From: Candidatus Woesebacteria bacterium
Lineage (GTDB): Bacteria > Patescibacteriota > Microgenomatia > UBA12405
Assembly: GCA_035402805.1 (NCBI GenBank)
Contig: DAONDY010000002.1
Coordinates: 149,963 to 213,962 of the forward strand
DNA: 64,000 bases
Reading direction: 5' to 3'
The notes under the pieces are model-generated. The model worked only from the letters and a program-made list of their open reading frames with translations, searched no databases and was not told the DNA's origin. A program made the position numbers and the translations under genes. Of the stretch, positions 1,338 to 50,917 are shown in pieces (position 1 is the first letter of the stretch; every line of letters begins with the position of its first letter).

Positions 1338-1452
1338 CCTTCCTCCCCGATATTTATCGGGGTATCCTCCCTTATCAAGGGAGGAAGTATTATCTTTTAA
1401 TTTCTCCCTTTGTTAAGGGGAGATGTTGAACGAAGTGAAACAGAGAGGATTA
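1338..1452 (+). repeat. Intergenic palindromic repeat unit, family B copy B1: successive GC-rich hairpins (ccccgatatttatcgggg; tcctcccttatcaagggagga; tctccctttgttaaggggaga) ending ...aacagagaggatt
   Basis: Near-identical core tttctccctttgttaaggggagatgt...gacagagaggatt also at ~37460-37530 and 40001-40047. Related to right terminal repeat of DUF559 element at 51650-51704. Confidence 0.7.
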
Positions 1453-1892: not shown

Positions 1893-1990
1893 AAATTCTC
1901 GTTAAATTCTTGGCTCGATAACATTTTTGCCGTGCTCACGCCCTTCGGCATTACACCTCGGATGATTGCGCGCGGAAAAATATTATCTTC
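1893..1990 (+). repeat. Degenerate copy of intergenic repeat family A (starts aattctcgtta..., shares tgccgtgctcacg / cttcg blocks with copies at 12183, 37241, 58988)
   Basis: By-eye alignment to family A consensus. Much more diverged than the other three copies. Confidence 0.35.
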
Positions 1991-2002
1991 GCCAATTTAA
2001 AA

Positions 2003-2887: not shown

Positions 2888-3879
2888 TATTGATCCTTAT
2901 ATTTTTTCTTTAAGGTTTCTAATTCTTTTTCAAGTTCGTCAACTTTTTCAGAAGTCTCTTTTTTACTACCAGTCTTTTTCTTAAGAGCCAGAATAATAAC
3001 GACAATGATAATTATGGCGGTAGTGACTAAAATGAGTAATCTCCAAGGAATAACCCAGAAGAAAAGTACAGCAGTAGCAACTCCACCAGCAGTCCCATAA
3101 GCAGCATTTAATTCAGCTTTATAACGACCAAAAAGCCATTTTTTGCTTAATTGATTTTGAAATTCTCTGACTTTTCCTGGGAAAATATTGACACCTTCGG
3201 CATTGAAAGCAATTTGATCGGTTCTTAAACCAAACATATTGGTAACAGTGATATTACCAGCTGCTTTGATGTGAATATCAGATAAATTTTGGATAACAGT
3301 TTTAAAGTCAATTGGTCCAAATTCAGAGAATTTAGGAGCAGTAAAGTCTTTTACGGTAGCATTTTGACGGATATTTCCAGGAATTGTGATGTAAACTAGA
3401 GTACCAACTTTGGTTTGAATAGAAGAACCAGTGGAATCAATAATAGAAACTTGATTATCTGGACTATGAAGAACCATAGCATAGTGACCACCAGGGAGAG
3501 CATTAGCTGGAGGCATAACTGTTAAAATTAAAGTTTTAGTTTCGCCACCTTTTAGTTTGACAGATGAAGGAGATACTTGGATCCAAGAACTAGCAGCCCA
3601 GCGGTTATCCTCTTTAGAGGAAGTAATAACAGTGGGAGTACCAATATCATCATTAACTACAAAATCTTCAACGGTTATAGTTATATTTTTTTCTTTACTA
3701 GATTCGTTTCGAACTTTAATAGTTTGACTAACAACACCATCTGGTTTAACAGTAACTTCAAGACGAGGAGGGATAGCTGATAATCCTTCAGTAGTTTGAG
3801 CGTGGATAGGGGCAGTTATAAGAGAATAGTTGGTGGCTAATAGAAGAAGTAGGGTTGTTATTTTTATATATTTTTTCAT
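2887..3879 (-). CDS. Cell-surface protein: signal peptide, beta-rich ectodomain, single C-terminal TM helix followed by Lys/Glu-rich cytoplasmic tail (architecture like DUF916-type wall/surface proteins)
   Basis: ORF track. N-terminal signal peptide. C-terminal VLFFWVIPWRLLILVTTAIIIIVVIILALKKK then KETSEKVDELEKELETLKKKYKDQ. Confidence 0.5.
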   Translation of the reverse strand: MKKYIKITTLLLLLATNYSLITAPIHAQTTEGLSAIPPRLEVTVKPDGVVSQTIKVRNESSKEKNITITVEDFVVNDDIGTPTVITSSKEDNRWAASSWIQVSPSSVKLKGGETKTLILTVMPPANALPGGHYAMVLHSPDNQVSIIDSTGSSIQTKVGTLVYITIPGNIRQNATVKDFTAPKFSEFGPIDFKTVIQNLSDIHIKAAGNITVTNMFGLRTDQIAFNAEGVNIFPGKVREFQNQLSKKWLFGRYKAELNAAYGTAGGVATAVLFFWVIPWRLLILVTTAIIIIVVIILALKKKTGSKKETSEKVDELEKELETLKKKYKDQ

Positions 3880-3881: not shown

Positions 3882-5372
3882 TTAGAAAGTGGCAGTAGCA
3901 ATATAACTAATTTGATTTTCATAAGTGCCAGCTTGTTGAGTGGTAGAAGCAACCGCTCGATAACAAACATAAATAGAATCAGTACCAGTTGGAGTATTGG
4001 TGCGGCTTAAGATTGGTTGAGCATTAGCAAAACCAATTCCGAATGGTTTATAGTGACCAACAGTAGTAATACCAATTGAAGCAGTAGTTCCTGTAGTAAC
4101 ACCAACTTCGAGAGAGTAACCAAAACCAGAATTAGTATAAGCAGTCCAGGCTCTTTGGGCTGTGGGAGTACAACCAGTCCCTTCACAAGTAGTATTAGGA
4201 ATAGTAAGACCAACACCACCAGCACCAGTGGTTCCAATGGTGGTCATAACTTGATTTTCGAAAGCTTGAATTACATAACCATTAGCTGAATTAGTTGTAC
4301 AAGAAATGCTTTGAGCAAGGTTGTTGTAAGTGCCCAAAACTAATGGTCCAAAATTTACAGAAGTAGCTGTTGTCTCTGGAGCTCCATTACTAATTGGGAG
4401 TCCGCAACGGCTGGTTCCGATTGAGGTAGTATTTGAAGATCCAATAGTGAAAGTAATGGTTGGATCGACAATAGCGGTAACTCTAACACTTTCGGTGACA
4501 GCTAATTTTCCGAAAGTAGTATCAATAACATTACCAAAAGTATCAATTTGTCTGATGGCATAATTATATGCATCAACTGTACCAGTAGCTTGTCCAGGGA
4601 CATGGTTAATGCCTGGAGCTGGATTGATTAATTTGCTGTAAGTATCTCGACCAATGACCATACTAATACCAACACCGACAGTGGAAGCATTACCACTACA
4701 CTGAATGACGTGATAGGTTCCAGTAGAACCAATATTAACTCCAGAGGAAATGAAAACAGTGGTTCCAACACTGGCAGTACCACTAAGAGGACAAGTAATA
4801 TCAGCTACTTTTAAAGCAGTTCCCGGTCCAGTGGTGGTAGAACCAACATCTTTACCTAAATCAAATCCGCCTTGATCTGGAATACCATCTGCTGGTAGTT
4901 CACCAGGGAGATTGGTAGCTTTAATTAAAAATTGCCAAGTTTCACCAACACCAGTAGAACTTTGGGGAACGAAAGAAACAGTGTGAACAGCAGAACGGGT
5001 GGCAATAACATAAGCGTTAGGAGTAGTAGTACCAATAGCGGTAGAAAGTTCTATGGAGGCGGTATCACCAATATTTCTAACAATGTAAGTGCTAACAGTG
5101 GTAACACCAGCGTTAGCAATAACGATAGTATCACCAGTAGCAAGATTGGCGGTAATGATTGAAGGAGCTGAACTACCGATAGTATTTATTTTAATAGTAG
5201 ATCCATTAGCACTACTTAGACGACCAAAAAAAGACAATTGAGCTGTAGAAAGTTGGTCTTTTAGACTATTGACAGGGGCTGATTTAATTTGACTACCATT
5301 AGCGAAAAAAGTTAAATAGACAGGCAATGCCAGAAAAAGAAATGTTACAACTCGAAATAAAGCTTTTTTCAT
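3882..5372 (-). CDS. Secreted Thr/Gly/Ser-rich surface protein (496 aa) with signal peptide; first gene of a three-gene surface-protein operon (3882-5372, 2887-3879, 2003-2887)
   Basis: ORF track. MKKALFRVVTFLFLALPVYLTFFANG signal peptide. Low-complexity T/G/S/V-rich beta-strand-like composition. 3-nt gap to next gene. Confidence 0.5.
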   Translation of the reverse strand: MKKALFRVVTFLFLALPVYLTFFANGSQIKSAPVNSLKDQLSTAQLSFFGRLSSANGSTIKINTIGSSAPSIITANLATGDTIVIANAGVTTVSTYIVRNIGDTASIELSTAIGTTTPNAYVIATRSAVHTVSFVPQSSTGVGETWQFLIKATNLPGELPADGIPDQGGFDLGKDVGSTTTGPGTALKVADITCPLSGTASVGTTVFISSGVNIGSTGTYHVIQCSGNASTVGVGISMVIGRDTYSKLINPAPGINHVPGQATGTVDAYNYAIRQIDTFGNVIDTTFGKLAVTESVRVTAIVDPTITFTIGSSNTTSIGTSRCGLPISNGAPETTATSVNFGPLVLGTYNNLAQSISCTTNSANGYVIQAFENQVMTTIGTTGAGGVGLTIPNTTCEGTGCTPTAQRAWTAYTNSGFGYSLEVGVTTGTTASIGITTVGHYKPFGIGFANAQPILSRTNTPTGTDSIYVCYRAVASTTQQAGTYENQISYIATATF

Positions 5373-8210: not shown

Positions 8211-8231
8211 GGGCGACCACAAGAGTCGCCC
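8211..8231 (+). repeat. REP-like GC-rich hairpin gggcgac-cacaaga-gtcgccc immediately upstream of the RayT-like transposase gene
   Basis: Seen in sequence. Same gggcga...tcgccc stem type as the two hairpins inside the transposase ORF. Confidence 0.55.
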
Positions 8232-8253: not shown

Positions 8254-8841
8254 ATGTATTATCACAGAAGATCGATTAGATTAAAGGGATATAATTATTC
8301 ACAAAATTGGTTTTATTTTGTAACCATATGTGCCAAAAATAGAGGTAATGTTTTTGGTGAAATTGTAGGGGCGAGGCGTGACTCGCCCTTAATTAATAAA
8401 AATAATATATTTGCAAACGATCTGAATAGTAATTTATTCGAAATGAAATTAAATCAAAATGGGGAAATTATTGATGAAATTTGGAAATCATTATCAATTC
8501 ATCATAATGTAATTTTGGATGAATTTATTATTATGCCAGACCATATACATTTTATTTTGGTAATTAAAAATGACTTAAATAAAAATCAAAATAAATTGGA
8601 AAATAATGAAAATTTGATATTAAAAAATAATAATAAGGGCGAGTCACGCCTCGCCCCTACATTAGGGTGGATTGTTGGAATTTTTAAAACAGAATCAACA
8701 AAACGAATTAATAAATTAAATGAGACGCCAAAAATTCAATTATGGCAACGCAATTATTATGAAAGAGTTATTCGTAATGAAAAAGAGTATTTGATGATTA
8801 AAAAATATATTAGAGATAATCCAAAAAATCTAGGTTTATAA
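8254..8841 (+). CDS. RayT-like (REP-associated) Y1 HUH transposase of the IS200/IS605 superfamily (195 aa)
   Basis: N-terminal YHRRSIRLKGYNYSQ..YFVTICAKNR signature of TnpA-REP proteins. HUH motif MPDHIHFIL. RAPTLG-like motif SRLAPTLGWIVGIFK. C-terminal catalytic Tyr region QRNYYERVIRNE. Confidence 0.8.
   Translation: MYYHRRSIRLKGYNYSQNWFYFVTICAKNRGNVFGEIVGARRDSPLINKNNIFANDLNSNLFEMKLNQNGEIIDEIWKSLSIHHNVILDEFIIMPDHIHFILVIKNDLNKNQNKLENNENLILKNNNKGESRLAPTLGWIVGIFKTESTKRINKLNETPKIQLWQRNYYERVIRNEKEYLMIKKYIRDNPKNLGL
8361..8675 (+). repeat. Perfect 28-bp inverted repeat pair (tgtaggggcgaggcgtgactcgccctta at ~8361-8388 and its reverse complement at ~8648-8675), each itself a gggcgag/ctcgccc hairpin, lying in-frame inside the transposase ORF and bracketing the HUH motif
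   Basis: Seen in sequence by reverse-complement comparison. Confidence 0.75.
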
Positions 8842-10041: not shown

Positions 10042-11334
10042 TTGATAAAATGTCTCATGACTAAAATTTTAGACGATAGTAAAATAAAAAGTTTTATTAA
10101 AGATGAAGAAGTTTTGGAATGGCAAGAAAAAGTAAAAGAGGCGCATAAGAAAATTCATGAGAAAAGCGGAGAAGGAAGTGATTTTTTAGGATGGGTAGAT
10201 TTGCCGATTAATTATGACAAAGAAGAATTCTCAAGAATAAAATTGGCGGCAGAAAAAATTAGAAATGATTCAGATATCTTAATAGTAATTGGAATTGGGG
10301 GATCATATTTAGGATCTAAAGCAGTTATTGAGGCATTAAAAGGTGATTCAAAAATGGAAATTTATTTTGCTGGAAATGATTTAAGTTCTCGACATATAAG
10401 TGATTTACTTCAAAAAATTGAAGGTAAAAATGTTTCTTTAAATGTAATTTCAAAATCAGGAACGACTACTGAACCAGCTTTGGCTTTTAGAATTTTAAGG
10501 GAGTGGATGGAAGTGAAATATGGTGAGGAAGCCAATAAAAGAATTTATGCCACGACTGATAGAGAAAGAGGGGTTTTAAAAGAATTATCAATCAAAAAAG
10601 ACTATGAAACTTTTGTGGTTCCAGATGATATTGGAGGGAGATATTCAGTTTTAACAGCAGTAGGTTTATTACCAATTGCAGTGGCGGGAATTAATATTGA
10701 TGATTTAATGTGCGGTGCCCAAGCAGCGAGACAAAATTTTAATAATGAAGATTTATTGGAAAATGATTGCTATAAATATGCAGTTTATCGAAATATTTTA
10801 TATAAACAGGGAAGAGAAATTGAAATTTTGGCAAATTATGAACCATGTTTACACTTTATAAGTGAATGGTGGAAACAGCTATTTGGGGAAAGCGAAGGTA
10901 AAGATAAAAAAGGAATTTTTCCAGCAGCGGTAGATTTTACGACTGATTTACACTCGATGGGACAATTTATTCAAGATGGAAATCGAATTTTATTTGAAAC
11001 AGTTTTATCAATAGAAGAAGATGAAGAAAAATTAGTAATAAAAGAAGAAGAACAAAATTCAGATGGTTTAAATTTTTTGGTAGGCAAAACTCTTGATGAA
11101 GTAAATAAGAAGGCAATGGAAGGAACGATTTTAGCCCATACTGAGGGTGGAGTATTAAATCTAATTATTAGATTACCTAAATTAGATGCTTTTAATTTAG
11201 GATATTTGCTTTATTTTTGGGAAAAAGCTTGTGCTATGAGTGGATATTTATTGGGAGTAAATCCATTTAATCAACCGGGAGTGGAAGTGTATAAGAAAAA
11301 TATGTTTAAGCTACTTGGTAAACCAGGATTTTAA
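10042..11334 (+). CDS. pgi: Glucose-6-phosphate isomerase (SIS-domain, short 430-aa type)
   Basis: Motifs [47 protein letters not shown] characteristic of PGI. Confidence 0.85.
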
Positions 11335-12171
11335 TTTAAACTTTTTGATTCCAAAAATAATCAAGGTGACTAATAAGATAAATAAAAGAGGTGAAATAGG
11401 TAAAACATAGAAGGAAGTGTTATATGGTTGAGAATTCAGATCGGAATTTAAAATGACAGAGACTTTGTAGTGGCCCGGCCAAAGAGGGGGATTGATAGAA
11501 CAGGAACTTTCATTTAAACAACTAATATTGCGACTGTGGTGGTTTAAAACATTATCTGGACTTAGCTCAAATTCTTTAATAACTTTATCGTTTTTAGTGA
11601 TGGTAATTTTGCCATTAGTTTTGAAAAAGAAATCGGAATTATTTTTTATTTGGCCATTAAAAGTGATGGGGTTAAAAAAGATGTCTTTTATTTTTGGAGA
11701 AATGGAAAAATTTTGAATAGCTGATTCAACTTTGGGGTTTTCGATATTGGAAACTGTCAACAAAAGATGGGAACCAATTTTGCCGGTGGCGGCAGTAAAA
11801 TTATCATTTGATTGAATAGTATTTTGATTTTGAAAAATAAAAAAAGTGTAATAATTGTCGGCTAGACTAATATTAGAATTGGTTTTTATTTTTAAAACTA
11901 GTTGTTGTTTGGAGTTGGCAGCTAAAACAAAAGGTTGACCGAGTTTAATATCAGAGTTGGCAAGGGAAAATTCAATATTAGGATTACTGATGGCTTGATT
12001 ATAATTAACCGAGCCGTCGGTGCCACTAGGAATCCAAGGTAAAATTTCAGTGTTAAGAATAATTTCAGAATCGGAATTATTGGTGACGTCGTAGGCTTGG
12101 ACAAGATTAACGCCGGGTTTTAAAACGTATTCTGATTGAGCTGGTGATAAAGATAAATTAAATGTTGTCAT
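11311..12171 (-). CDS. Hypothetical surface protein with C-terminal TM anchor (286 aa); 3' end overlaps pgi by 24 nt (convergent)
   Basis: ORF track. C-terminal [20 protein letters not shown] hydrophobic anchor. Confidence 0.4.
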
Positions 12172-12182
12172 AAATCTTATTA

Positions 12183-12265
12183 AAAACTCTCGTTACAAAT
12201 TTTTTATAATCGGCGAATGTGCGTCGCACGTTCGATATTACAAAAAATTGCAACTTCGACTTTTT
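12183..12265 (+). repeat. Intergenic repeat family A, copy A1 (~85 bp; outer arms gttacaaattttttat / acaaaaaattgcaac, inner hairpin gaatgtgcg-tc-gcacgttcg)
   Basis: 80-90% identity by eye to copies at 37241-37330 and 58988-59075. Lies between two minus-strand genes. Confidence 0.7.
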
Positions 12266-12284
12266 AATTATTTTATAAATCATA

Positions 12285-13034
12285 TTAATATTTAGGGACC
12301 ATAATAAAATTTATAGAATTTTGATAAGTGCCAGCACTTTGATTTGGAGAAATATTAACTTTATAAGTAATATTGGCAAGGTGATCTTCAACTGGGGTAT
12401 TTTCAGACATAATTATTTTGGCAGTTTCGCCAGCCGAATTATCAGCAAATTGACGGAAATAAGTAGAATTAGTAAAAAAAGTGGAAGTACCGTCACCAGA
12501 AGCATTAAAACCAAAACCATAGGTATTACTACTGGTCCAAACATCGGATGTTGATTCCGAACAGGTACTAGAATCACATTTAGTATCGGAAATAGTAATG
12601 CCACCGCCAATAGTTTTTAGAGGGTGATTAGCAAAGGTAAGAATATCGTAACCATGAGCAGTAGGGGTGCTAACAGTTAATGTGTTGGTAACAGTAGAAC
12701 CAATATTAGGAATCAAATTGCCAAAATTTAGATCAAGATTACTAATTTGAAAAGATAAAGGAATAGCATTGTCGTAAATATATTGAAAACCAGCTTTGAC
12801 AATATAACCAGCGCCATCGTATTGACCAGGGGCATTTTGACCGACAGAGTCGGTTAAAGTATAAGTGCTAGAAGTTTTTTTACCACCAGTCATATTAAAA
12901 TTGCCAAATTCAATATGAAAATTATTGGAATCAAAGGTTTGACTAAGACAGATTTCAGATCTCAGATGACAGATTTCAGATAAGAATAAAAAGGCAATAA
13001 AAAAGATTTTAAGTTTCATCAGATTCTTGATCAA
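12285..13034 (-). CDS. Secreted hypothetical protein with signal peptide (249 aa)
   Basis: ORF track. N-terminal MIKNLMKLKIFFIAFLFLSEI signal-like region. Confidence 0.45.
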   Translation of the reverse strand: MIKNLMKLKIFFIAFLFLSEICHLRSEICLSQTFDSNNFHIEFGNFNMTGGKKTSSTYTLTDSVGQNAPGQYDGAGYIVKAGFQYIYDNAIPLSFQISNLDLNFGNLIPNIGSTVTNTLTVSTPTAHGYDILTFANHPLKTIGGGITISDTKCDSSTCSESTSDVWTSSNTYGFGFNASGDGTSTFFTNSTYFRQFADNSAGETAKIIMSENTPVEDHLANITYKVNISPNQSAGTYQNSINFIMVPKY

Positions 13035-13719: not shown

Positions 13720-14330
13720 TGAGATTGTTGGAAAAAATACAAAAACTAAAAATAGTTGACGGATTATTAGTGATAGGTTTTTTGCTGGTAATTTTAGGTA
13801 TTGGAATGAATTTTAAAGATCAGTTTATGACGAAAGAAGAAGTAAAAATAGAGACAAAAAATATTAGTCCAACAGGTAAAAGTGATATACAAGTTGATAT
13901 TGAAGTAGTTATTGATATATCAGGAGAAGTGATGAAAGCTGGTGTTTATAAACTAAAAAATGGATCAAGAATTGATGATGTATTAATAATGGCCGGGGGA
14001 CTAAGCTTAAAGGCAGATAGGAATTGGGTGGATAAAAATTTAAATCGAGCGGAAAAAGTTTACGACGGACAAAAGATTTATATACCTAAAGTTGGGGAAA
14101 ATGTTGTTATTAATAGCACCCCGCTGGTGCGGGATGCTATTGTAGTCAGACTTAATTCGGCGAGTTTGGAGGAGTTGGATAAGTTGGATGGAGTGGGTCC
14201 GGCGATTGCTCAAAGAATTATTGATTATCGAACTGAAAATGGGGGATTTAAAAGTGTGGAAGAAATTAAATTAGTGCCAGGGATAGGAGATAAGATGTTT
14301 GAAAAGATAAAAAATGAAATTCAATTATAA
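13719..14330 (+). CDS. comEA: ComEA-type DNA receptor: N-terminal TM, SLBB-like domain, C-terminal tandem helix-hairpin-helix
   Basis: C-terminal LDKLDGVGPAIAQRIIDYRTENGGFKSVEEIKLVPGIGDKMFEKIKN (HhH). N-terminal membrane helix. Confidence 0.8.
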   Translation: MRLLEKIQKLKIVDGLLVIGFLLVILGIGMNFKDQFMTKEEVKIETKNISPTGKSDIQVDIEVVIDISGEVMKAGVYKLKNGSRIDDVLIMAGGLSLKADRNWVDKNLNRAEKVYDGQKIYIPKVGENVVINSTPLVRDAIVVRLNSASLEELDKLDGVGPAIAQRIIDYRTENGGFKSVEEIKLVPGIGDKMFEKIKNEIQL

Positions 14331-15228
14331 ATATTTAATTTGGTTGGGAATATTTTTAGTAGTTATTTTTATATACAAGTTTATAAATAAGGATAGTTTT
14401 ATTGAGGTTATTTTTCAAAATTTGCCGCCGAGGGAAGCGAGCTTAATGGCGGGGATGGTCTTTGGAGATAAAAATAATTTTGACAAAAATACTATCTTAA
14501 ATTTTCAATTTAGTGGGGTAATTCATATTATGGTGGTTTCGGGAACGAATATTGTTTTAGTGTTTAGAGGTTTAGTAGAAAGAATTGCAAGCTGGATTGG
14601 TAGGAAAAGAGCAATTATATTGGGATTTGGAGTGACTTTGGTTTATATAAATTGGGTAGGTTGGGAAATACCGGCGGTCAGAGCTTTTTTACTGATGAGT
14701 ATTTTTTATTGGGCACAATTGCTTGGTCGCAAATTTAACCTATTTAGAGCCATAATGTTGATTATTTTAATAATGGTTTTGGCCGATTATCGGGTATTTT
14801 TGAGTGGCAGTTTTTATTTAAGTTTTGTGGCATTTGGGGCAGTAGTAATTAATTTAAACAAGTCGCGAAAATGGTGGAGTGATTTATGGAATTCATTCTG
14901 GGTAAATTTATGGCTTTTACCAATTTTGGCTTTGTTTTTTGGAAAAATAAGCATAGTGGCACCGATTACTAATGCTTTAATTTTATTTTTAGTCGAAATA
15001 ATTACTATTTTAGGGGTGATAGGAAGTTTTTTTGGTTTATTGGTGCCTATTTTGGGTAAAATCGTATTATGGATAAGTTATCCGTTATTGAAATATATAC
15101 TATTAATAGTAGATTGGTTGGCGAGTTTTAAATGGTCGAGTATAGAGATTAAATTTAATTGGTTGTTTCTAATTGGTTGGTATTCATTATTAATAGCTTG
15201 GTGGTTGAAGAAAAAAAATGAAACATAG
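14314..15228 (+). CDS. comEC: ComEC/Rec2 competence-domain membrane channel protein (304 aa), lacking the N-terminal OB domain and with the beta-lactamase-like domain encoded separately
   Basis: Competence-domain motif SLMAGMVFGDK...SGVIHIMVVSGTNIVLV and multiple TM helices. Confidence 0.75.
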   Translation: MKFNYKYLIWLGIFLVVIFIYKFINKDSFIEVIFQNLPPREASLMAGMVFGDKNNFDKNTILNFQFSGVIHIMVVSGTNIVLVFRGLVERIASWIGRKRAIILGFGVTLVYINWVGWEIPAVRAFLLMSIFYWAQLLGRKFNLFRAIMLIILIMVLADYRVFLSGSFYLSFVAFGAVVINLNKSRKWWSDLWNSFWVNLWLLPILALFFGKISIVAPITNALILFLVEIITILGVIGSFFGLLVPILGKIVLWISYPLLKYILLIVDWLASFKWSSIEIKFNWLFLIGWYSLLIAWWLKKKNET

Positions 15229-15976
15229 AATTATTTTGTTTTTGTCATTAATAATGTTGGTGGTGTTGTTTTGGATAACTTTACCATCAAAAAAAGTGAA
15301 AGTAATTTTTTGTGATGTGGGCCAAGGGGATGCGACTTTGATAACTTATAAAAATTGGCAAATGTTAATTGATACTGGTCCAAATAATAAAAAAGTGTTG
15401 AATTGTTTAGAAAATAATTTACCATTTTGGGATAAAAAAATTGAGATGTTAATGATTACTCATGGAGATAATGATCATGATGGTGGTTTAACAGATATGT
15501 CGAAATATTATAAAGTTGAACAAGTTATTTACTCTAAAAATGTGAATCAATTTGATTTAATTAGAACTGATTGGATGACATTTGAGGTGGTCAATTCTGG
15601 GTTGAAAGATGATAATGAAAATTCAATAGCCGGTGTTTTAAGTTATGAAAAAACTAAAATTTTTTTTAGTGGAGACATAACGGCTGACACTGAAAAGAGA
15701 TTGGTATGGCAAAAAATATTAACCGATAAGGTTGATGTTTTAAAAGTCAGTCATCATGGTTCGAAAGATGGGACTAGTGAAGAATTATTAGAAGTATTAA
15801 AACCAAAATTGGCAATAATAAGTGTGGGAGTAAAAAATAAATTTGGGCATCCAACCAAAGAAGTATTAGATCGTCTAAAAGAAAAAGGAATAGAGATTAG
15901 AAGAACAGATGAGAATGGAGAAGTGCATGTAATAGATGTATTAGAAGAAATAGATAAAAAAGAAGTAATAGATTAA
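15218..15976 (+). CDS. Metallo-beta-lactamase-fold protein corresponding to the ComEC C-terminal domain (separate ORF, 11-nt overlap with comEC)
   Basis: VIFCDVGQGDATLI, HGDNDHDGG (HxHxDH zinc motif), SHHGS motifs. Confidence 0.75.
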   Translation: MKHRIILFLSLIMLVVLFWITLPSKKVKVIFCDVGQGDATLITYKNWQMLIDTGPNNKKVLNCLENNLPFWDKKIEMLMITHGDNDHDGGLTDMSKYYKVEQVIYSKNVNQFDLIRTDWMTFEVVNSGLKDDNENSIAGVLSYEKTKIFFSGDITADTEKRLVWQKILTDKVDVLKVSHHGSKDGTSEELLEVLKPKLAIISVGVKNKFGHPTKEVLDRLKEKGIEIRRTDENGEVHVIDVLEEIDKKEVID

Positions 15977-16060: not shown

Positions 16061-16363
16061 GTGGATAAGTGGTTTTATAAATTACACAGGATGAGTCTTA
16101 ACCAGCTTAAAGCGCTGGAGGTTTTGGCGTCTAGCACGGATGGAATAATTGAAGCTAATGAATCAGTAAAAGAAGTTGGTTTGGAAGGGAAGCATTTAGG
16201 AGGGATATTTTCATCTTTGTCTAGACAAAAAATAGGGAATGAAGGCCTAATTTTGGCTTGGGGAAGGGCAGAAAATGGTCGAGGTTTAAGATGGAAATTG
16301 AATACAAAATTAGTCGATCAAAAAGAGTTAAAAAAAGCAATAAAGGAGATTTTAGACCTATGA
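16061..16363 (+). CDS. Hypothetical 100-aa protein whose stop overlaps the start of the giant surface protein gene (ATGA)
   Basis: ORF track. ctATGAactgg junction at 16361-16364. Confidence 0.4.
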   Translation: MDKWFYKLHRMSLNQLKALEVLASSTDGIIEANESVKEVGLEGKHLGGIFSSLSRQKIGNEGLILAWGRAENGRGLRWKLNTKLVDQKELKKAIKEILDL

Positions 16364-19300
16364 ACTGGAAGAAAATCTTTTTATTAGCTTTGATCTTTTT
16401 TATTAGTAGTTTAGTTTCAGCCAGAGTCTTTTATGGCCGATTTAAAATAATTTTTGCAGCTCAAACAACAATAACATCAAGGTTAGATTTTGATGCAGGT
16501 ACTTTTGAAGGAACTGAAAGTCAAAGTAAGGAGGGAGATTTAAAATTAAAAGCCAGTGGAAATTGGAATCCGAGAGTATTTAAAACACCAAAAGTGACAC
16601 TAACTAATCAATCAGCTATTGCCAGTGATGGAACGGATGTTTATTTATTAGCAGGTCAAGATAGATATTTTACTAAATATATTTCCAGTGAAGATAGATG
16701 GGTAACTTTAGAGAATGCACCACATTTAGCTTATAACGGGGCAGATTTGGTCGTGTTAGGAGATTATGTTTATGCAATATATGGAAGTAATACTAAAAAT
16801 TTCAGTCGTTATTCAATAATGACTAATACATGGGAAGAGAGAGAAGATATGCCAGATTTAGTGGCAAATGGATCAACTATTGAAACTGATGGAACTTATA
16901 TTTATGCTTTAAGGGGGAATTCAACTTCTGATTTTTGGAAATATAATCCAACTACTGACAAGTGGTCTGATTTAAATACACCACCAGCAGCAATTGGCTC
17001 TGGAGCTAGTTTAGTCTATAAAGATGGTTACTTATATACACCGAGAGGAGCTTCTAACACAACTTTTTATCGATATAACATTAGTAATGGGATATGGTAC
17101 ACAATGCAAAATATCCCGGCGACTGTAGGAAGTAATCATAAATCTACAGTTTTAGGTGATTATATTTATGTAAATAGAGATACTAACACAAATAGTTTTT
17201 ATCGTTTTAATGTGGGGACTACAGCTTGGCAGACAATTGCCAATATTCCACAATTGACTCAATATGTAGGATCAGTGGCAGTGGGAGATACTGCGACTGG
17301 TTTTGTTTATGTGTTTAGAGGCAATGGTTATTATGACTTTTGGAAATATAATCCGAGAGATAATACTTTCTTGGGATTAACAGATTTACCTAATACCCCA
17401 AATACTGGCGCTGATTTACTTTATATGGATAATTACGTTTATTTTAGGAGGGGAAATAGCTCAAATTCTTTTTATAGATACAACACAGCAGTTGGTGGTA
17501 CTTGGGCAACAATGGCAAATGCTCCGGCAACTTTTGCTGATGATAATAGGGGAGTTAAAGCAGGAAATTATCTATATTATTTCAGAGGAAGTGGTGGAGC
17601 TAATACTTTTTATAGATATGATCCTAGTGTTGGAGTTGGTGGTACTTGGGCAACTATGTTGAGTACTCCGACAGCTTTGACGATTGGAGCTGGAGGAGCT
17701 TTGGCTTATCCAGGATCAGGGAATTATATTTATGCGACAAGAGGTGGAAATAATAGAACTTTTATGAGGTATACGATTGGAGTAGGAGAAACTTGGGATG
17801 ATGCAGTAGTAGCAGATTTACCTGATAATGCTGAACAGGGTTATGGATCAAGAATGACAAGTGATGGGACTAATATTTACTATATTTCAGGGAATGGAAT
17901 GGCTAATTTATATAAATATACAATAGCTGATAACATCTGGACAAGGTTGGGAACTTTACCTTTTTCACCTTATTACGGAACAGATATTAGTTATTATAAT
18001 AATAAAATTTATGTATTAGCAGGTAACTTAAAATCGGATTTTTGGGAATATTCTATTGATGATGAAAGTTGGAGATTATTACCACCAATACAAAGTTATG
18101 GGTTAACAGAGATCGGAGTTTGGAATGGTGGTTCGATTGTGGGTGATGGAAGTGGAACTTTTTATATTGAAGCGGGCAATAATAATACTAGATTTTTTAG
18201 TTATAGTGTAGGGAGTAGCAATTATCCAAGTAATGGAATATGGACAAGCGCTACAATTGATTTAAATTATGTAAAAAGTTGGTCGCCAATAGGGATAGAA
18301 TCGAGTACTTTGCCAGGGACATCTATAAATTGGGAGACAAGAACTAGTAATGATCGAATAAACTGGGAAATTTGGAAAGCAGGAGTAGGAACTAGTATAA
18401 CTTCAACTCCAAACAGATATATTCAATTGAGAATAACCTTAAATTCTGACGGGAGCCAAACTCCAACATTAAATTCGGTAGTAATAAATTATGTTGGTGA
18501 TTTAGAAAACCCAACTAATCCAAATAATATAATAGGCTTATCTCAACAGGTGTCAGGAATAGGATTGTCTAGTGGTGGTACTTATAATTATTTAGCACCT
18601 TATTTTAATTGGAGTGGAAGTACTGATGTAGATACTGGAGTGGCTGGTTATTATGTTTACTTTGGAATTGATTCAACCGCGGTTCCCGATATTAACGGGT
18701 CTTTTAGAACTAGTGCTGATTATTTAGTTAGTGATCCAATGGATCAAACAACTTATTATTTGAGATTAAAAACAGTGGATGAAGCCGGTAATAAAAGTGA
18801 AGCAATGACAGCTTTTATTTATACTTATAATGGAGTGTCTCCACCAACAATATTAAGTAAAAGTTTGACAACAGATTTTGAATTGGGGACAACTGATAGT
18901 GTAAATATTAGTGATAATCAGATTAAATTGGCATCGAAAGCTGGTTTTTGGCAACAAAATAGACTAGGACCATTGTCGGGAACTATTAGTTATGGATCGG
19001 GTTTTGCTTATTCAGCAACTAGGAACAAATTATATATCTTAAGAGGGACAAACAGTAATTCTTTTTATCAATATGACTTGACAACTAATATTGGATCAAC
19101 TTTGGCTAATGCACCAGGAACTGTATATTATGGAAGTGATTTAGTTGAAGGTCCAAGTGGTTATTTATATGCCTTGAGAGGTAATAATACTAATGGTTTT
19201 TGGAGATATGATTTGGCAGCTGGGACTTGGTCTGATGTATTGGCGGCAGATACTCCACAACCAGTTTATTATGGAGGATCTTTAGTTTTTGATGGAGATA

Positions 19301-22300
19301 GATATATTTATGCTTTAAAAGGGAATACAGATGATACTTTTATGAGATACGATACTATGACTGATAGTTGGGAAGTTTTAGATAATATTGATTTTGGAGC
19401 ACCGATACAACAACTTAATAATAATGTTTATGATGGAGCAGACTTGGCTTTTGATGGTAATCATGAAATTTATGCAATTCAAGGAGGAAGTAAAACTGGT
19501 TTCTCGGTTTATAATATTAGTAGTGAAAAGTGGAGTCAGTTAGGAAATTTACCAGTAATGGCTGGAGCTGGATCGCAAATAGAGTTTGATGCTGATAATA
19601 ATGCTATTTATTATTCACCGGGGTGGGGAAGAAATTTCTTCTATAAATATAGCATTGAAAGCCAAAGCTGGAGTGAACTAGCAGAGGTACCTTATGTGGT
19701 AGGGGCAGGATCAGCTTTAAAAAAAGTTGGTGATAATATATTTTTGGCAATAGGAGGAGGAAGTGCAAATATTTATAAATATTCCATAAGTAAAAATGCT
19801 TGGTCGGTACCGACAATGGGATTGTTTGGTGGTTTTTTTAGGGGTAGTGACAGTAGAAATTTTACTTATGGTGCAGATATAGTTAAAGGAGATGGGGATT
19901 ATTATTATTTGACTAGAGGTAATTACGATAATCTCTTTGTTAGATATAATCCTGAAACTGGAGTGGCAACAAAAATGGCTGATGCTCCAGGAGGTTTTTA
20001 TAGTGGTGGAGATTTAACTTATGATAGTGTGGCTAATAAAATTTATGCTATTACTAATCCTAATTATAGAAAATTATTTGTCTATGATATAGCGACTGAT
20101 GTTTGGAGTGAAGAAATTAATGACCCACCACCGGCTGACGCTGCTGATGGAGGAGCGATGTCTTTTGATGGATCTAAATATATTTATTGGATTAGAGGTA
20201 TTGGTCAAAGTTTTTATAGATTTGATACTCAAGGAGTGGGAACTAGTAAGTGGTCAAAACTTCCAAATGTGCCTTTGGCAATTGGGGCTGGTGGCGATTT
20301 AGTAGTTAAAGGTGATTATATCTATAGTTTAAGAGGAGCTGCTTCAACCAGCTTTTTAAGATTTGATATTGGAACAACAACTTGGTCTGATGTGGCAGTA
20401 GCTGATTTACCATCTGGGATGACAGTAACAACAGATGGATTTTTAGTTGATTTAGGTGGAAACAAATTAATGGCTTGTCGAGGAAATAATACTAATACTT
20501 GTTATGAATATTCTATTAGTGATAACAGTTGGCAATTAATAGATGGAACTTTTGGACCATATATTTATAGAGGAGCAGCGGGAGCTAGTAATGGGGAAAA
20601 TAGAGCTTTTATAATTCCAGGAAATGGAACAGTAAATACACCAAATAATGGAATATACAGTTATGTAAGTCAAGGAAGTGATTCTGCTTATGAAGAAGAT
20701 GGTAGTTATATTAGTCCAGTTTATGATCTAGATATGGTTTATCGTTTTGCTAATTTAAAAGTTGGTGTATCAATGCCAAATAATACCGATTTGAATGTTT
20801 ATACAAAAACTTCTAGTGATAATGTTGAATGGAGTGATTGGGCTTTGGTTAGTGATAAAAAGATTATTGGAAATGATTGGATTTATAAAATAAATTCAAT
20901 ACCTGGTCGATATTTAATGATCAAATTAAACTTGTCCTCTAGTGATGGAATAAAAACTGGTGTAGTTAATGATTACCAAATTAGTTATTACCAAGATTTA
21001 GATCCGCCAAATAATCCGACGGAATTAAGTGTTTATCAGAATATTAGTAAAGGAACAACTTTAACTTCGGGAGTTTGGAATAATAGTACAACTCCTTATT
21101 TTGAATGGAATACAGGTACAGATGGAGACAATGGTTCAGGAGTGGCGGGTTATTATACTTATTTTAATCTAGGATCAACTGCTGATCCGGCAGTTTTAGG
21201 AACTTATACAACAGCACCTAATTTTAGTGGAGTTGGCTTATCTAGCGGGCAAACATACTTTTTCCGAATGAAGACTAAAGATAGTGCCAATAATATAAGT
21301 AGTGAAGTTGGAACAACTTTTGTCTATAAATTAGATAATACGCCGCCAGTTAATCCAATAACTATTTCAGTTGATCCACCAGGGTATACAAACACTAATA
21401 ATTTTAATTTTACTTGGTCTTCAGGAAGTGATGTTGGTTCATCAGTATCGGCTTATTGTTATAAAGTAGGAATAGGTGGAACTGAGAGTTGTATTCAGGG
21501 AATAGGGATAACTGGTGTTAGTGGAGTGCAAGCTTATCAAACAGGAACTAATACTTTCTATTTGAGAGTAAAAGACACAGCTAATAACTATGCGACTGAT
21601 TATGCTACGGCAAGTTTTTATTACAGTTCAATAGCTCCTGGAGCACCAAAAAATTTAGCAGTAGGGCCAACTATTAATTCAGTTAATGAATTTGCCTTTT
21701 CTTGGCAAGCACCAGACTTGTTTTATGGTCAACAAGTTGGATTGAGATATTATTATTCAATTAATGAAGAGCCTTCATCTTCAAATGTCAATAAAATTGG
21801 TTTAGCTGAAACTTATTTATCGAGTGGTCCTTATGCCACCAGAAAAGACAGTAACACTTTTTATGTGGTAGCAAAAGATGAAGCAGGAAATATTGATTAT
21901 AATAATTTTACTTCGGTTCAATTTGAAGCCAAAACTTCAGCTCCTGGAATTCCTTTAAATACTGATATTTCTGATGTATCAGTTAAAGAAACTAATAATT
22001 GGAGGTTGGCTTTGGCTTGGGAAAGTCCGGAAGTAAGTGGTTCAGGAATTGCCAATTATAAAGTTTACAGGTCAGGGGTGACAGATGCTAATTGTAGTAC
22101 TGATATGGATGACTTTACTAATATCTCTTCAACTAGTAGTGAATCATTTGTGGATACAAATTTAAAACAAACAAAATATTATTATTGTGTAACAGCTTGT
22201 GATTCAACTAATGAATGTAGTGCACCATCTAGTACAGTATCTTTAACTCCCGATGGAAAATGGCGGGTAGCTCCAACTTTATTAGATGGTCCAAGTGCGG

Positions 22301-23499
22301 TGGTAAAAACTAAATCGGCGACTGTTACATGGACAACCAATAGAACAGCTAGTTCATTTGTAAAATACGGAAAAAGTTCTGGTGATTATGGTGATGAAGT
22401 GGGAACTTCTGATCAATTAACGGCTCATGAAATTGATTTATCAGGATTGGATCCGGGAACAACTTATTATTATAAAGTTTTATGGACCGACGAAGATGGA
22501 AATACTGGAGAATCAGCAGAACAAACTTTTTCAACTAATGCAGCGCCACTAGTATCGGCAGTAAAAGTAAGTGATGTAAGTTTATATTCGGCTTATGTCG
22601 ACTTTACTCTTAAAAATGCAGTTAAAGCGGTGGTTCAATATGGAAAAACGACAGCTTATGGAAATAATCAGGAAATTACAACTTCTAGAGCTGAGGGAAG
22701 TTATATGTTTAAGATAGAAGAGTTGGAAGAAGGAACTGTTTATCATTTAAAGATACAAGCTTTAGATGAAGAAGGAAATATTTTTACTAGCGATGATTAT
22801 ATTTTTGAAACTTTACCAGTACCAAAGCTTTCAGATGTTAAAACCCAACAAGTTAAAGGAATGGCGACGGCAACTTTAAGATTGTTGTGGAAATCAAATA
22901 CAGCAGTGAGTTCAATAGTTACTTATTATCCAGTTGGAAGAACAGAAATGGCCAAAGATAATATTAAATTAACTTTATCAAAAAATCATGAAGTTTTATT
23001 AAAAGATTTATATGACGATACAGAATATGTATTAGTTTTTAAAGGAAGAGATTCAATGGGAAATAGTGCGGAGGGTATAACTTTGAAATTTAAAACATCA
23101 GCTGATATGAGACCACCAGTAATTTCTGATTTAAGATTAGAATCAGTTGTTGATGGAATAGGGGCTGATGCTAAAGCTCAAGTAATTGTTTATTGGAACA
23201 CTGATGAACCAGCAAGTTCGCAAGTAGAATATGGCCAAGGAACTGGCAATGATTATCCGAATAAGAGTCAAAAAGATTCTAATTTAACATTGAATCATAG
23301 TTTGACAGTTCCAGAGTTGAAACCGTCAGAGGTTTACCATTTTAGAGTAGTAACTGAGGATAAAATTGGCAATGTAAGTATGTCTTATGATAATGTAGTA
23401 ATAACCTCGAAAGAAACTAAATCAGCTTTGGATTTGGTAATTGAAAACTTATCTAAAAGTTTTGGATTTGTCAGTAATTTATCAGGAGTGGCTAAATAA
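16362..23499 (+). CDS. Giant secreted surface protein (~2379 aa): signal peptide, several Kelch-like beta-propeller repeat arrays (recurring Y.Y..RG....F.RYN....W units), interspersed FN3-like domains, and C-terminal array of purple-acid-phosphatase-N/FN3-like domains
   Basis: ORF track frame 16258-23499. Preferred start ATG 16362 giving MNWKKIFLLALIFFISSLVSA signal peptide. Dozens of ~45-aa Kelch-like repeats. FN3-like segments (ATVTWTTNRTASSFVKYGK...TTYYYKV). Confidence 0.8.
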
Positions 23500-31591: not shown

Positions 31592-31663
31592 TGTCCTCAG
31601 GGGGAATTGAACCTCCATTCCAGGTTTAGGAAACCTGTGTTCTATCCGTTAAACTATAAGGAC
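31592..31663 (-). tRNA. tRNA-Arg (anticodon CCT)
   Basis: Manual cloverleaf fold of reverse complement: acceptor GTCCTTA/TGAGGAC, anticodon stem CAGGT/ACCTG with loop TTCCTAA, TTCAATT T-loop. One A-C mismatch in T-stem. Confidence 0.7.
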
Positions 31664-31718
31664 TTATTAAAATTTCTAATTTCCAATGACAAATGTCAAA
31701 AGTTAATTAGAACGGGGT

Positions 31719-31791
31719 CGGGGATACTGGATTCGAACCAGCAACCTCAGCGTCCCGAACGCTGCACGCTAGCCAATTGCGCCAATCCCCG
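31719..31791 (-). tRNA. tRNA-Pro (anticodon CGG)
   Basis: Manual fold: acceptor CGGGGAT/ATCCCCG perfect, anticodon stem CAGCG/CGCTG with loop TTCGGGA (G37), T-loop TTCGAAT. No encoded CCA. Confidence 0.75.
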
Positions 31792-37217: not shown

Positions 37218-37240
37218 ACTTGTATTATCTCATTAAATTA

Positions 37241-37330
37241 AATTCTCGTCACAAATTTTTTATGTCTGGTGAATGTGGTCGCCCACGTTCAAGGACACAA
37301 AAAATTGTGTCTTCGAACTTAATTTATGTC
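37241..37330 (+). repeat. Intergenic repeat family A, copy A2 (inner hairpin gaatgtgg-tcgc-ccacgttc)
   Basis: Alignment by eye to A1/A3. Between divergent murB and ruvC. Confidence 0.7.
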
Positions 37331-37409: not shown

Positions 37410-37530
37410 TAATTAAATCCCTCTTGTCCTGCGGACATCCTCCCTCAACGAGGGCGGAAGTCTTTTTATTTTTCTCCCTTTGTTAAGGGGAGATGTCTCC
37501 ACGCTAACGCGGGGAGACAGAGAGGATTTT
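37410..37530 (+). repeat. Family B repeat unit, copy B2 (…tcctccctcaacgagggcgga…ttttctccctttgttaaggggagatgtctcc…ggggagacagagaggatttt). Coordinates +/-10 bp.
   Basis: Same core as B1 and B3. Lies ~80 bp downstream of A2 and ends ~15 bp before ruvC start. Confidence 0.65.
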
Positions 37531-39956: not shown

Positions 39957-40050
39957 CTACCCCTAACCCCTCCCTTAAAAAAGGAGGGGGAAATGTTTAT
40001 TTTTCTCCCTTTGTTAAGGGGAGATGTCACGAAGTGACAGAGAGGATTTT
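39957..40050 (+). repeat. Family B repeat unit, copy B3 (cccctcccttaaaaaaggagggg hairpin; tctccctttgttaaggggaga hairpin; gtcacgaagtgac hairpin; ...agagaggattttt)
   Basis: Seen in sequence. Overlaps the GTG-extended 5' end of the downstream ORF. Confidence 0.7.
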
Positions 40051-42648: not shown

Positions 42649-43059
42649 TTATTTTAATTCAACTTGAGCACCAGCAGCTTCTAATTTAGCTTTAGCATCA
42701 TTAGCAGCATCTTTTTTCATGGTACCTAAATCAGCTGGACAGGCATCGACCATATCTTTAGCTTCTTTTAAACCAAGTTCTGGTTTAAATTCTCGAACAG
42801 CTTTGATGACGGCAATTTTATTGGCGCCAGCAGAAGTGATGACGACATCAAATTCAGTCTTTTCTTCAGCAGCAGGAGCGGCAGCAGCACCACCAGCAAC
42901 GGCAGCACCAGCAGCAGCTACAGGAGCAGCAGCGACGGCCTTGACATCAAATTTTTCTTCAAGAGCCTTAACTAATTCGGAAAGCTCAAGAACTGAGAGT
43001 TCGGCTACAGAATCGAGTAATTTTTCGATTTTAGCACTTACTTTTTTATCTTCTGACAT
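42649..43059 (-). CDS. rplL: 50S ribosomal protein L7/L12
   Basis: N-terminal dimerisation helix, Ala-rich hinge, C-terminal KEAKDMVD...[12 protein letters not shown]. Confidence 0.92.
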
Positions 43060-43121
43060 AGATTTTTAATTTAATTAATAATTAATAGTTTATAAAGTTA
43101 AAAGTTTATCAAGTTTTAAAC

Positions 43122-43634
43122 TTATTTTTGTTTTTCAGAAATGGCTTTAAGAGTTAAAACCAATTGAGTTTGGTTAAAACGGAGAGCATAAGCCAATCTT
43201 TGGAGAGGATTTTTGAGTCCACCAATAAATTGAGCAATAAGAGTGCTTTTGGAAGGTAGAGTTAAAAAGGTTTTTAATTCATCTAGGGATAAAAGTTTTT
43301 TATCGTAGATACCATATTTGAAGGTAGTTTTTTCCTTAGCTTTATTAACTTTATCGATTTCTTTTAAAGGAGCAATTTCATCTTCGTTACAAAAAGTAAC
43401 AGCGGTGGGACCAGTTAAAACTTCTGGTAGGGTAATGCCTAATTTTTCTAAAGCTCTGGTTAAAAGAGAGTTTTTAACAACTTCGATTGAACCACCAGTA
43501 TTTTTAACATTGGCACGAAGATCAGTAGTGTCAGCGGCATTTAGACCTTGATATTGAATTAAGGCAACTGATTTAGCGGCACTAATTTTTTTAGCGACGT
43601 CTTCGACTTGATTGATTTTTAGTTGAGTAGTCAT
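43122..43634 (-). CDS. rplJ: 50S ribosomal protein L10
   Basis: L10 fold sequence. Position immediately upstream of rplL. Confidence 0.88.
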   Translation of the reverse strand: MTTQLKINQVEDVAKKISAAKSVALIQYQGLNAADTTDLRANVKNTGGSIEVVKNSLLTRALEKLGITLPEVLTGPTAVTFCNEDEIAPLKEIDKVNKAKEKTTFKYGIYDKKLLSLDELKTFLTLPSKSTLIAQFIGGLKNPLQRLAYALRFNQTQLVLTLKAISEKQK

Positions 43635-49787: not shown

Positions 49788-49854
49788 TTGTTTTTATTTA
49801 ATAAATAATTAAGGAATAAATCCCTCTAAATCTCCCTTTGACAAGGGAGACTTT
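49788..49854 (-). promoter_or_regulatory. rplK-rplA intergenic segment with hairpin tctccctttgacaagggaga (possible L1 autoregulatory mRNA site or a fragment of repeat family B)
   Basis: Hairpin seen in sequence. Close resemblance to family-B hairpin tctccctttgttaaggggaga. Confidence 0.3.
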
Positions 49855-50277
49855 TTAGATAATCTCAACACCCATAGATTTGGCAGTGCCCATGACTGAT
49901 CTTTTGGCTGCTTCTAAATCTTTAGTGTTTAAATCGACAATTTTAGCTTTTGCAATTTGCTCGACTTGAGCCATGGTTAACTTACCGACTTTTTCTTTGC
50001 CAGTAGTGCCAGCGCCTTTAGCGATGCCACTTATTTTTTTGATCATATCAGAAACTGGAGGCTGTTTTAAAATGAATTCGAAAGAACGATCTTCAAAAAT
50101 AGTGATAACTGCAGGGATAATGGATCCACGCATTTCTTTAGTTCGGTCATTAAATTCATTACAGAAATCCATGATCTTGATACCTTGAGGACCAAGAGCA
50201 GTACCGACTGGAGGAGCTGGATTAGCGCTACCTGCCGGAATAGTTAATTTAACAATTGTTTTTATTTTTTTAGCCAT
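49855..50277 (-). CDS. rplK: 50S ribosomal protein L11
   Basis: N-terminal PAGSANPAPPVGTALGPQGI motif, typical L11. Confidence 0.92.
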   Translation of the reverse strand: MAKKIKTIVKLTIPAGSANPAPPVGTALGPQGIKIMDFCNEFNDRTKEMRGSIIPAVITIFEDRSFEFILKQPPVSDMIKKISGIAKGAGTTGKEKVGKLTMAQVEQIAKAKIVDLNTKDLEAAKRSVMGTAKSMGVEII

Positions 50278-50318
50278 TTTTTTAGTTTTAAAGTTATAAA
50301 GTTTATCAAGTTATAAAG

Positions 50319-50915: not shown

Positions 50916-50917
50916 AA

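Follow-up and report, generated by a model that had tools for sequence, protein, structure and literature searches.

Family A, an intergenic hairpin repeat in a Woesebacteria genome

The DNA analyzed here is a 64-kb stretch of a Candidatus Woesebacteria contig (DAONDY010000002.1; hereafter, the window), with a GC content of about 33%, in which an earlier note, made from the letters alone, had reported three copies of a repeat between genes. We recovered all three (at 12183-12265, 37241-37322, and 58988-59069), each on the plus strand, and refer to this intergenic hairpin repeat of about 90 nt as family A and to its copies in the window as A1, A2, and A3. A covariance model of the family (R1) placed their limits at 12178-12268 (A1, 100.9 bits), 37234-37325 (A2, 94.1 bits), and 58982-59072 (A3, 105.1 bits). 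The recurrence is far above chance: the 19-nt 5' motif of the family occurs three times in the window against an expectation of 0.31 even when three mismatches are allowed, and the inner hairpin pattern GAATGTG-N-CACGTTC occurs three times against an expectation of 0.00.

A1, which belongs to subtype II (middle stem ATAATCGG/GATATTAC), lies, as had been noted, between two minus-strand genes, the tandem open reading frames (ORFs) 11311..12171 and 12285..13034, and is antisense to both. A2, of subtype I with a 4-nt loop (TCGC) and a G-C top pair, has as neighbors the divergent genes murB (minus strand) and ruvC (plus strand). A3, likewise of subtype I, begins at the stop codon of the plus-strand gene glyA (serine hydroxymethyltransferase, SHMT) and is convergent with a minus-strand DUF5652 gene; the proteins encoded beside family A copies include DUF5652 and DUF5680.

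Compensatory changes preserve the fold

Upon folding, each copy in the window formed one long imperfect hairpin on either strand (z-scores of -2.5 to -5.6). The unit had been described as about 85 bp long: it is indeed a repeat, but with its outermost helix (AAATTC/GAATTT) included it reaches about 90 nt and comprises four helical segments. Its halves do not fold on themselves, forming one continuous hairpin instead, and its T and A runs lie within that hairpin, where they pair with each other.

The stem sequences originally quoted for A1, A2, and A3 were correct, and the compensatory change claimed for the inner stem held for a single pair within the window, which is C-G in A1 and A3 vs G-C in A2. 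The ninth pair assigned to A1 (gcg/cgc) did not hold, as it would require an impossible 1-nt loop; A1 and A3 share an identical 8-bp inner stem (GAATGTGC/GCACGTTC) and differ only in their 3-nt loop. The more striking covariation within the window is that of the middle stem, which reads ATAATC/GATATTA in A1 vs ATGTCT/AGGACA in A2 and A3, i.e., three consecutive double changes, alongside which the foot pair of the inner stem is also doubly changed (C-G vs T-A). In the outer stem, one pair is altered on both sides, from T-A to C-G in A2. Inversion of the core as the source of the A1 middle stem was rejected, because reverse-complementing the consensus right arm does not give the left arm of A1.

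To broaden the sample, as the earlier note had proposed, covariation was assessed over additional copies from related contigs (L-numbers denote stretches of related metagenome-assembled genomes [MAGs] and metagenome contigs fetched for comparison), with the metagenome search anchored on the 5' half of family A only, such that nothing constrained the 3' partners. Among 17 copies, which are mutually related and were aligned by fitting to the model, 91.7% of cells were paired and 14 of the 35 pairs contained double changes, compared to 6.2±1.4 doubly changed pairs in shuffles (0 of 500 as high) and six at most when partners were slid. In the corresponding alignment of all 24 copies, double changes were present in 19 of 35 pairs vs 11.6±1.7 in shuffles (0 of 1000), and 90.8% of cells were paired vs 80.7%. 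The internal stems covary, not the termini alone, and unpaired regions are no better conserved than stems. A T opposite G, reported for the three copies in the window, occupies the fifth inner-stem pair in 24 of 24 copies, and both pairs beside it covary, from A-T to G-C and from G-C to C-G (in L093c, L096, L098a, and L098b). Because the compensatory changes far exceed the shuffled and slid controls and the T·G is invariant between covarying pairs, selection on the family A fold, as originally argued, and on its T·G mismatch is well supported.

Filled and empty sites among relatives

In total, we obtained 24 distinct family A sequences, three from the window and 21 from relatives, which represent about 14 distinct genomic sites. 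A scan of a genome collection with a two-anchor pattern, which was possibly too strict, returned two true copies (in L007 and in the Shapirobacteria MAG L006) and one chance match; the metagenome scan returned copies on 12 further contigs, and a scan of viral contigs yielded one chance match only and no family A copy. R1 added copies that the patterns had missed (two in L012, three in L093, two in L098, and others in L090, L096, and L023, the last at 4720-4811). Contigs that are nearly identical to the window derive from anaerobic-digester-type metagenomes, and, judging from the contigs on which it was recovered, family A appears to be specific to a clade of Microgenomates of the candidate phyla radiation (CPR), comprising Woesebacteria- and Shapirobacteria-like genomes. 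Over related contigs, family A averages about one copy in 14 kb, unevenly distributed between contigs (from none in 12 kb to three in 11.6 kb), which extrapolates to some tens of copies per genome of 0.6-1 Mb. Separately, L007 and L096 (CAYPBP010000005.1 and CAYPBP010000013.1) are from a MAG titled 'uncultured Gammaproteobacteria'; both are syntenic with the CPR window at ~70-85% translated identity, and the label or the binning looks wrong.

Orthologous sites are filled in some relatives and empty in others. At the junction of the comEA stop and the comEC start (14326..14334 in the window), family A is present in L023, L093, and L098 and absent from the window, L007, and L099, and alignment of the window with L023 shows a clean 82-bp indel where the two genes overlap. 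Comparison of relatives at the comEC 3' end (15215..15230) revealed family A in L007, L093, and L098, an empty site in the window and L023, and, in L099, a gene resembling those of REP-associated tyrosine transposases (RAYTs; REP, repetitive extragenic palindrome). The A1 site holds orthologous copies in L009 and L023 and is empty in L093, where it differs from the filled site by more than the element. Family A also changes places with other hairpins: in L067 it lies exactly where the window has a terminator-like hairpin followed by a family B element, and a copy in L093 (3675-3767) occupies the site orthologous to that of the family C element in the window (families B and C are described below). 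The copy at L023 4720-4811, with mismatched arms and an R1 score of only 36.8 bits, is a decaying copy.

Subtypes group by genome and not by site. All three copies in L012 have the loop GGTCGCCC, all three in L093 have the subtype II middle stem, and both in L098 are of a third type; at the A1 site, L009 carries subtype I vs subtype II in the window and L023. The genome-specific subtypes indicate replacement and turnover, or else concerted evolution, and not slow drift in place.

Family A follows the G-rich strand

Without exception, family A copies are on whichever strand of the contig is G-rich (skew of +0.13 to +0.42), such that, with contigs assembled in arbitrary orientation, about 14 of about 14 distinct sites have the same polarity. 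Within the window, the GC skew of the plus strand is unusually strong, remaining positive over all 64 kb (0.15-0.39), and because it is retained within minus-strand genes (0.17) and intergenic DNA (0.16), it is not a by-product of the direction of transcription. Only 57% of genes in the window (31 on the plus strand and 23 on the minus strand) are on the G-rich strand, and co-orientation with genes therefore cannot explain a single polarity at some 14 sites. The genes that flank family A copies occur in all four combinations of orientation, and at four sites the gene on the 5' side of the element is on the opposite strand. The clearest case is the A1 site, which is conserved in three genomes with the element antisense to both neighboring genes.

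In L006, an 8-kb stretch of Shapirobacteria DNA, the GC skew changes sign at about 3000-3500, a position that may mark a replication origin or terminus. The sole family A copy in this stretch is on the side where its strand is G-rich, and there is no copy beyond the switch.

RNA or single-stranded DNA

The T·G pair had been viewed as a wobble that forms only in RNA read from the plus strand, which is true of this position but not of the remainder of the element: over the 24 copies, the plus strand contains 52 G·T cells vs 43 A·C cells, the latter being G·U on the minus strand, and these counts decide for neither strand. When folded as RNA, the minus strand was the more stable in 19 of 24 copies, with mean folding energies of -23 and -26 kcal/mol on the two strands. 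When folded as DNA, no strand was favored (11 of 24), and with stability thus equal on both strands, orientation-dependent deletion is unsupported as the source of the polarity.

Searching the whole window against Rfam at the gathering threshold, a search that had been suggested at the outset, gave no match to any family, terminator families included, at the three family A copies, and at E≤10 around the copies there was nothing for families A, B, or C and only far sub-threshold matches near A2. Scans of the three loci for sigma-70 promoters and for intrinsic terminators detected no consistent promoter and no terminator-like site. Most copies start 0-50 nt past the stop codon of a co-oriented upstream gene, many of them within a few bases of it, which leaves no room for a promoter of their own. 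A structured plus-strand RNA is not supported by these results. The other possibility raised in the earlier note, a hairpin of single-stranded DNA (ssDNA) of the REP type, fits much better, and we prefer it because orientation tracks the G-rich strand, neither wobble pairs nor folding energies are biased to the plus strand, sites are filled or empty among relatives, and a decayed copy exists.

A RAYT-like gene with repeats of its own

At 8254..8841 on the plus strand, 3.4 kb from A1, the window encodes a RAYT-like Y1 (HUH) transposase, which matched NCBIfam REP_Tyr_transpos (E = 6.9e-13; 48.7 bits, below the cutoff of 80) and Pfam Y1_Tnp (26.4 bits, above the cutoff of 23). The protein has 195 aa with motifs DHIH, WQ, and YIRDNP, and has an identical counterpart in NCBI under the name Candidatus Woesebacteria. 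Sequence searches revealed two GTAG REPs in frame within the gene, one at 8365..8388 on the plus strand (GTAGGGGCGAGGCGTGACTCGCCC) and an identical, inverted one at 8637..8660 on the minus strand, which encode VGARRDSPL and GESRLAPTL; the RAYT gene of L093 has the same arrangement. The motifs, the length, and the two in-frame REPs fit RAYT subclass 2.4 as described (PMC6006769 Table 1), a putative assignment based on these features; members of this subclass have an NH[IFV]H-like HuH motif, WQ, YIxNNP, about 194 aa, and in-frame REPs (PMC6006769, Quentin et al. 2018). Just upstream of the start codon is a GC-rich hairpin (8211..8231, plus strand; GGGCGAC-cacaaga-GTCGCCC), of which a covarying version travels with the gene in L090 and L096, pairing being kept among the stems GGGCGAC/GTCGCCC, GGGCGGT/ACCGCCC, and GGGCGGAC/GTCCGCCC (window, L090, and L096). 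There is no other transposase, DDE transposase, insertion sequence (IS), or integrase in the window, in which no IS200-type TnpA or TnpB was seen, nor any DDE transposase or IS in the fetched flanks.

Relatives of the RAYT gene are present in L090 (10001-10510), L091, L092 (1286-1906), L093 (10001-10543), L096 (8941-9429), L098 (10001-10468), and L099 (3970-4548). They occupy four intergenic sites, always on the G-rich strand: after ppdK (window, L093, and L098), after glyA (L090, L091, and L096), after comEC (L099), and after a dCMP deaminase gene (L092). At two of these four sites, other genomes carry family A, and the intergenic site of A3 is the one occupied by the RAYT gene in L090, L091, and L096. 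This sharing of sites is suggestive of a common insertion route, as a circumstantial observation subject to sampling bias.

Comparison with known repeats

[quoted passage not shown] In common with REPs and REPINs, it consists of intergenic hairpin repeats downstream of genes, with complementarity kept between variants; the genomes concerned have a RAYT-like Y1 gene in single copy, and an ssDNA substrate is proposed for both. REPs measure 20-40 nt, have GTAG or CGTC as a tag at their foot, and lie on the flanks of their RAYT genes; a REPIN is made of two such REPs in inverted orientation (PMC3733652, PMC6006769). Family A differs from a canonical REP in being 85-91 nt long and AT-rich, in lacking GTAG, and in not flanking the RAYT gene; CGTC occurs only in CGTCAC variants (e.g., A2 and L007), most copies having CGTT or CGTA. 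Unlike a REPIN, it forms one continuous hairpin and not two inverted REPs that each self-fold, and strict single orientation has not been described for REPs or for bacterial interspersed mosaic elements (BIMEs), which occur as inverted pairs.

With IS200/IS605 elements and their gene-less derivatives, the palindrome-associated transposable elements (PATEs), family A would share, as read via GC skew, an orientation that is fixed relative to replication, and it shares apparently seamless indels (PMC5027513), as well as imperfect hairpins with conserved irregularities and the presence of a Y1 HUH enzyme in the genome (PMC5027513). IS200/IS605 elements, however, have distinct left and right subterminal hairpins and a defined tetra- or pentanucleotide 3' of which they insert, whereas family A is a single, nearly symmetric hairpin. 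Despite the clean comEA/comEC indel, no conserved target motif is separable from its AT-rich outer helix.

Several other repeat families, including ERIC/IRU, RUP, Correia/NEMIS, the Rickettsia RPE, and bcr1 of Bacillus, each consist of one long imperfect hairpin of about 70-150 nt and, like family A, are intergenic, co-transcribed with their neighbors, and found at sites that are filled or empty between strains. Unlike family A, they occur in both orientations, and several have TA duplications or IS parents. To our knowledge, no such family has been reported from CPR bacteria, and we know of none that is similar in sequence to family A. The termini of family A are inverted repeats with TTAA/TTTAAA-like flanks, where a target duplication would look no different from a palindrome that extends further; the outermost bases of the element in L006 and L007 are complementary and not direct repeats.

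Family A also recalls the attC sites of integrons, which are imperfect palindromes of 57-141 nt with structure conserved above sequence, used in a strand-specific way as folded single-stranded DNA in which unpaired or mismatched bases are conserved. We rejected this candidate: the motif order in attC is RYYYAAC...GTTRRRY and in family A the reverse (GTTACAA...TTGCAAC), the copies are dispersed among housekeeping genes, and there is no integrase in the window. Intrinsic terminators were likewise rejected, there being no GC-rich stem followed by a T run at the three loci. Family A thus fails the tests for a canonical REP, a REPIN, a PATE, an attC site, an intrinsic terminator, and every Rfam family.

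Other elements and genes in the window

Family C is represented by a hairpin of about 100 nt at 1903..2001 on the plus strand (R1 score 21.4 bits, E = 0.14), a distant relative of family A with similar outer arms (TCGATAACATTTTT ... AAAAATATTATCTTCG) around a different, GC-rich core; a homologue is present in L057 (2774-2872, minus strand). It is preceded at 1893-1904 by AAATTCTCGTTA, 12 nt identical to the 5' end of family A, an arrangement suggestive of one element having replaced another or inserted into it.

Family B has four copies in the window (1375-1436, 37445-37506, 39976-40037, and 51653-51683, plus strand) and others in L007, L093, L098, and L096. It consists of the hairpin CTCCC-TTTGTTAA-GGGGAG, a second hairpin, and then AGAGAGGA, situated upstream of start codons, and the second hairpin varies in stem and length with pairing kept (GTCAC GAA GTGAC; GTCC GAA GGAC; GTCTCC...GGGGAGAC). 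From these features it looks like an RNA motif of the 5' untranslated region or ribosome-binding site. In several relatives the order is stop codon, family A, family B, start codon. One of five distinct family B copies is on the C-rich strand, so, in contrast to family A, this family is not bound to the skew.

The window contains three further features of note. At 62869-62922 on the minus strand, between minus-strand genes for a glycosyltransferase and an unannotated ORF, there is a type III hammerhead ribozyme (49.2 bits vs an Rfam gathering score of 48.5) with a full catalytic core (CUGAUGAG, CGAAAC, and GUC). The gene for phosphoglucose isomerase (10042-11334, plus strand) is a single ORF of 430 aa in the window and of 425 aa in L003, and gene calling splits it into two (217 + 196 aa) in the otherwise identical contigs L001 (10838-12114) and L002 (4288-5564), reflecting either a strain-level frameshift or an assembly error. 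An ORF of 2,413 aa at 16258-23499 (plus strand), whose DNA is internally repetitive and whose product gives faint matches to Kelch, fibronectin-III, and NANM, probably encodes a giant surface protein.

How family A may spread

The reading that we favor, at about even confidence, is that family A is a non-autonomous, REP/MITE-like hairpin DNA element that spreads via ssDNA on one replication template. In the IS200/IS605 family, excision is precise and the lagging-strand template receives the element in a fixed orientation (PMC5027513, PMC6006769), and it is by parallel with the movement of these elements (PMC5027513) that we propose a mechanism at the replication fork: family A would be excised and inserted as ssDNA, folded on the strand that is exposed at the fork, whence its polarity. 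Pairing would be under selection because only foldable copies serve as substrates, and the T·G mismatch would be a feature for recognition. In most bacteria, the G-rich strand is the leading strand; if this applies here, the exposed strand, as deduced from GC skew, would be the lagging-strand template. Mobilization might be performed in trans by a Y1 HUH transposase, for which the RAYT-like gene at 8254-8841 is the sole visible candidate. Once inserted, copies would be passively transcribed as strong mRNA hairpins, whichever strand is read, and may affect transcripts secondarily.

Several observations weigh against this reading. No transposase is linked to family A, which as a single hairpin is neither the left-end/right-end pair of IS200/IS605 nor a REP doublet. 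The cognate repeats of the RAYT are canonical GC-rich GTAG REPs, present in all fetched DNA only in or beside RAYT genes, and no family A half flanks the RAYT gene in seven loci, the GC-rich hairpin being there instead; because the RAYT is never abutted by family A, family A is not the cognate REP of this RAYT by the defining criterion. A tblastn search with the RAYT protein among the fetched family A loci found it only in the nearly identical L001-L003, the other contigs being short. The identity of the leading strand is assumed from GC skew, and the polarity was read from contigs that are parts of genomes, on which no flip across an origin or terminus was observed. If the G-rich strand is leading, it is also unexpected that the ribosomal-protein and tRNA genes of the window are on the C-rich strand (rplL/rplJ at 42649-43634, rplA/rplK/nusG/secE at 49035-51196, and tRNAs at 31592-31791). 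Finally, exact ends, a target motif, and a target duplication are not definable in the AT-rich palindromic flanks, and because several sites are filled in several relatives, ancient insertion followed by loss, or else gene conversion, is inseparable from repeated insertion.

Four other explanations merit weighing. Family A might act in cis as an mRNA hairpin (protecting 3' ends, providing a site for RNase III-type processing, or serving between genes as a weak terminator or insulator in both directions) that has spread by unspecified means, and we consider this rather unlikely as the primary account. Such a role would suit the location of most copies shortly after a co-oriented stop codon, the order of stop codon, family A, family B, and start codon in several relatives, the strength of the hairpins as RNA on both strands, and their A-rich 5' and T-rich 3' borders, which are like those of bidirectional terminators; but a role that can be played in either orientation leaves the G-rich polarity unexplained, not least at the four sites where the gene on the 5' side is opposite. 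At A1, moreover, both adjoining genes are on the opposite strand and T·G becomes A·C in the transcripts of the locus, and the lack of a terminator-like site at the three copies, the decayed copy, and the empty orthologous sites, by which the element is not indispensable, all speak against it. Effects as an mRNA hairpin may well coexist with spread as ssDNA, the two not being exclusive. That family A is a small structured RNA, about 80 nt long and transcribed on its own from the plus strand, is by contrast extremely unlikely. Such an RNA would account for the uniform orientation, as for RNA genes co-oriented with replication, and for an invariant T·G that is tolerable as G·U in plus-strand RNA only, but it has against it the absence of an Rfam match, of a promoter-like site upstream, and of room for one, as well as the 43 A·C cells on the plus strand, the greater stability of the minus strand as RNA, unpaired regions that are no better conserved than stems, and turnover by presence and absence.

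The polarity could alternatively arise without mobility if family A were a host signal in DNA structure linked to replication, whether for priming or restart, fork pausing, or chromosome organization. The strict alignment with strand composition, the occurrence of copies roughly every 5-20 kb, the conserved mismatch within a covarying stem, and the sites common to relatives are what such a signal would predict; yet sites are readily empty in close relatives, even at overlapping genes, different hairpin families swap at one site, a decayed copy exists, and density varies from contig to contig to the extent given above. We know of no polar host signal that is an 85-nt hairpin, and we judge this explanation to be very unlikely. 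We assign a similarly low probability to family A being a MITE of the classical cut-and-paste type, mobilized by a DDE transposase from another part of the genome, with a polarity that is accidental or results from selective loss. The whole element is an inverted repeat at intergenic, filled or empty sites, and its TTAA/TTTAAA-like flanks might include a short palindromic target duplication. A single polarity at about 14 of 14 sites, with 57% of genes on that strand, is nevertheless unexpected for double-strand cut-and-paste, the equal stability of the two DNA strands offers no obvious route to orientation-dependent deletion, neither the window nor the fetched flanks contain a DDE transposase, and internal stems covary in addition to the ends. 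The host signal, the small RNA gene, and the DDE-mobilized MITE each fit fewer observations than does an ssDNA element spreading on one replication template.

A bolder version of the ssDNA account, which we think quite unlikely, would make families A and C a new class of replication-polar, single-hairpin ssDNA transposon of CPR bacteria, mobilized in trans by a domesticated RAYT that keeps its canonical GTAG REPs within its own gene, inserting time and again at a few intergenic sites shared with the RAYT cassette and reused by the host as modular gene-boundary elements. If this were true, it would be the first RAYT-type enzyme to propagate long, untagged hairpins.

For annotation, family A serves as a warning: a palindromic repeat should not be taken for an RNA gene on the strength of covariation alone. 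Its polarity, its invariant mismatch, and its sharing of sites with the RAYT gene together constitute a testable system for asking by what means REP-like repeats are mobilized and if a RAYT acts at the replication fork, and the element would be a useful strain marker. No account of such repeats in CPR bacteria turned up in the literature that we searched. CPR genomes are tiny and tightly packed, and little mobile DNA is usually ascribed to them; in this setting, a conserved hairpin with the density of family A and its turnover at gene boundaries would contribute notably to genome dynamics.

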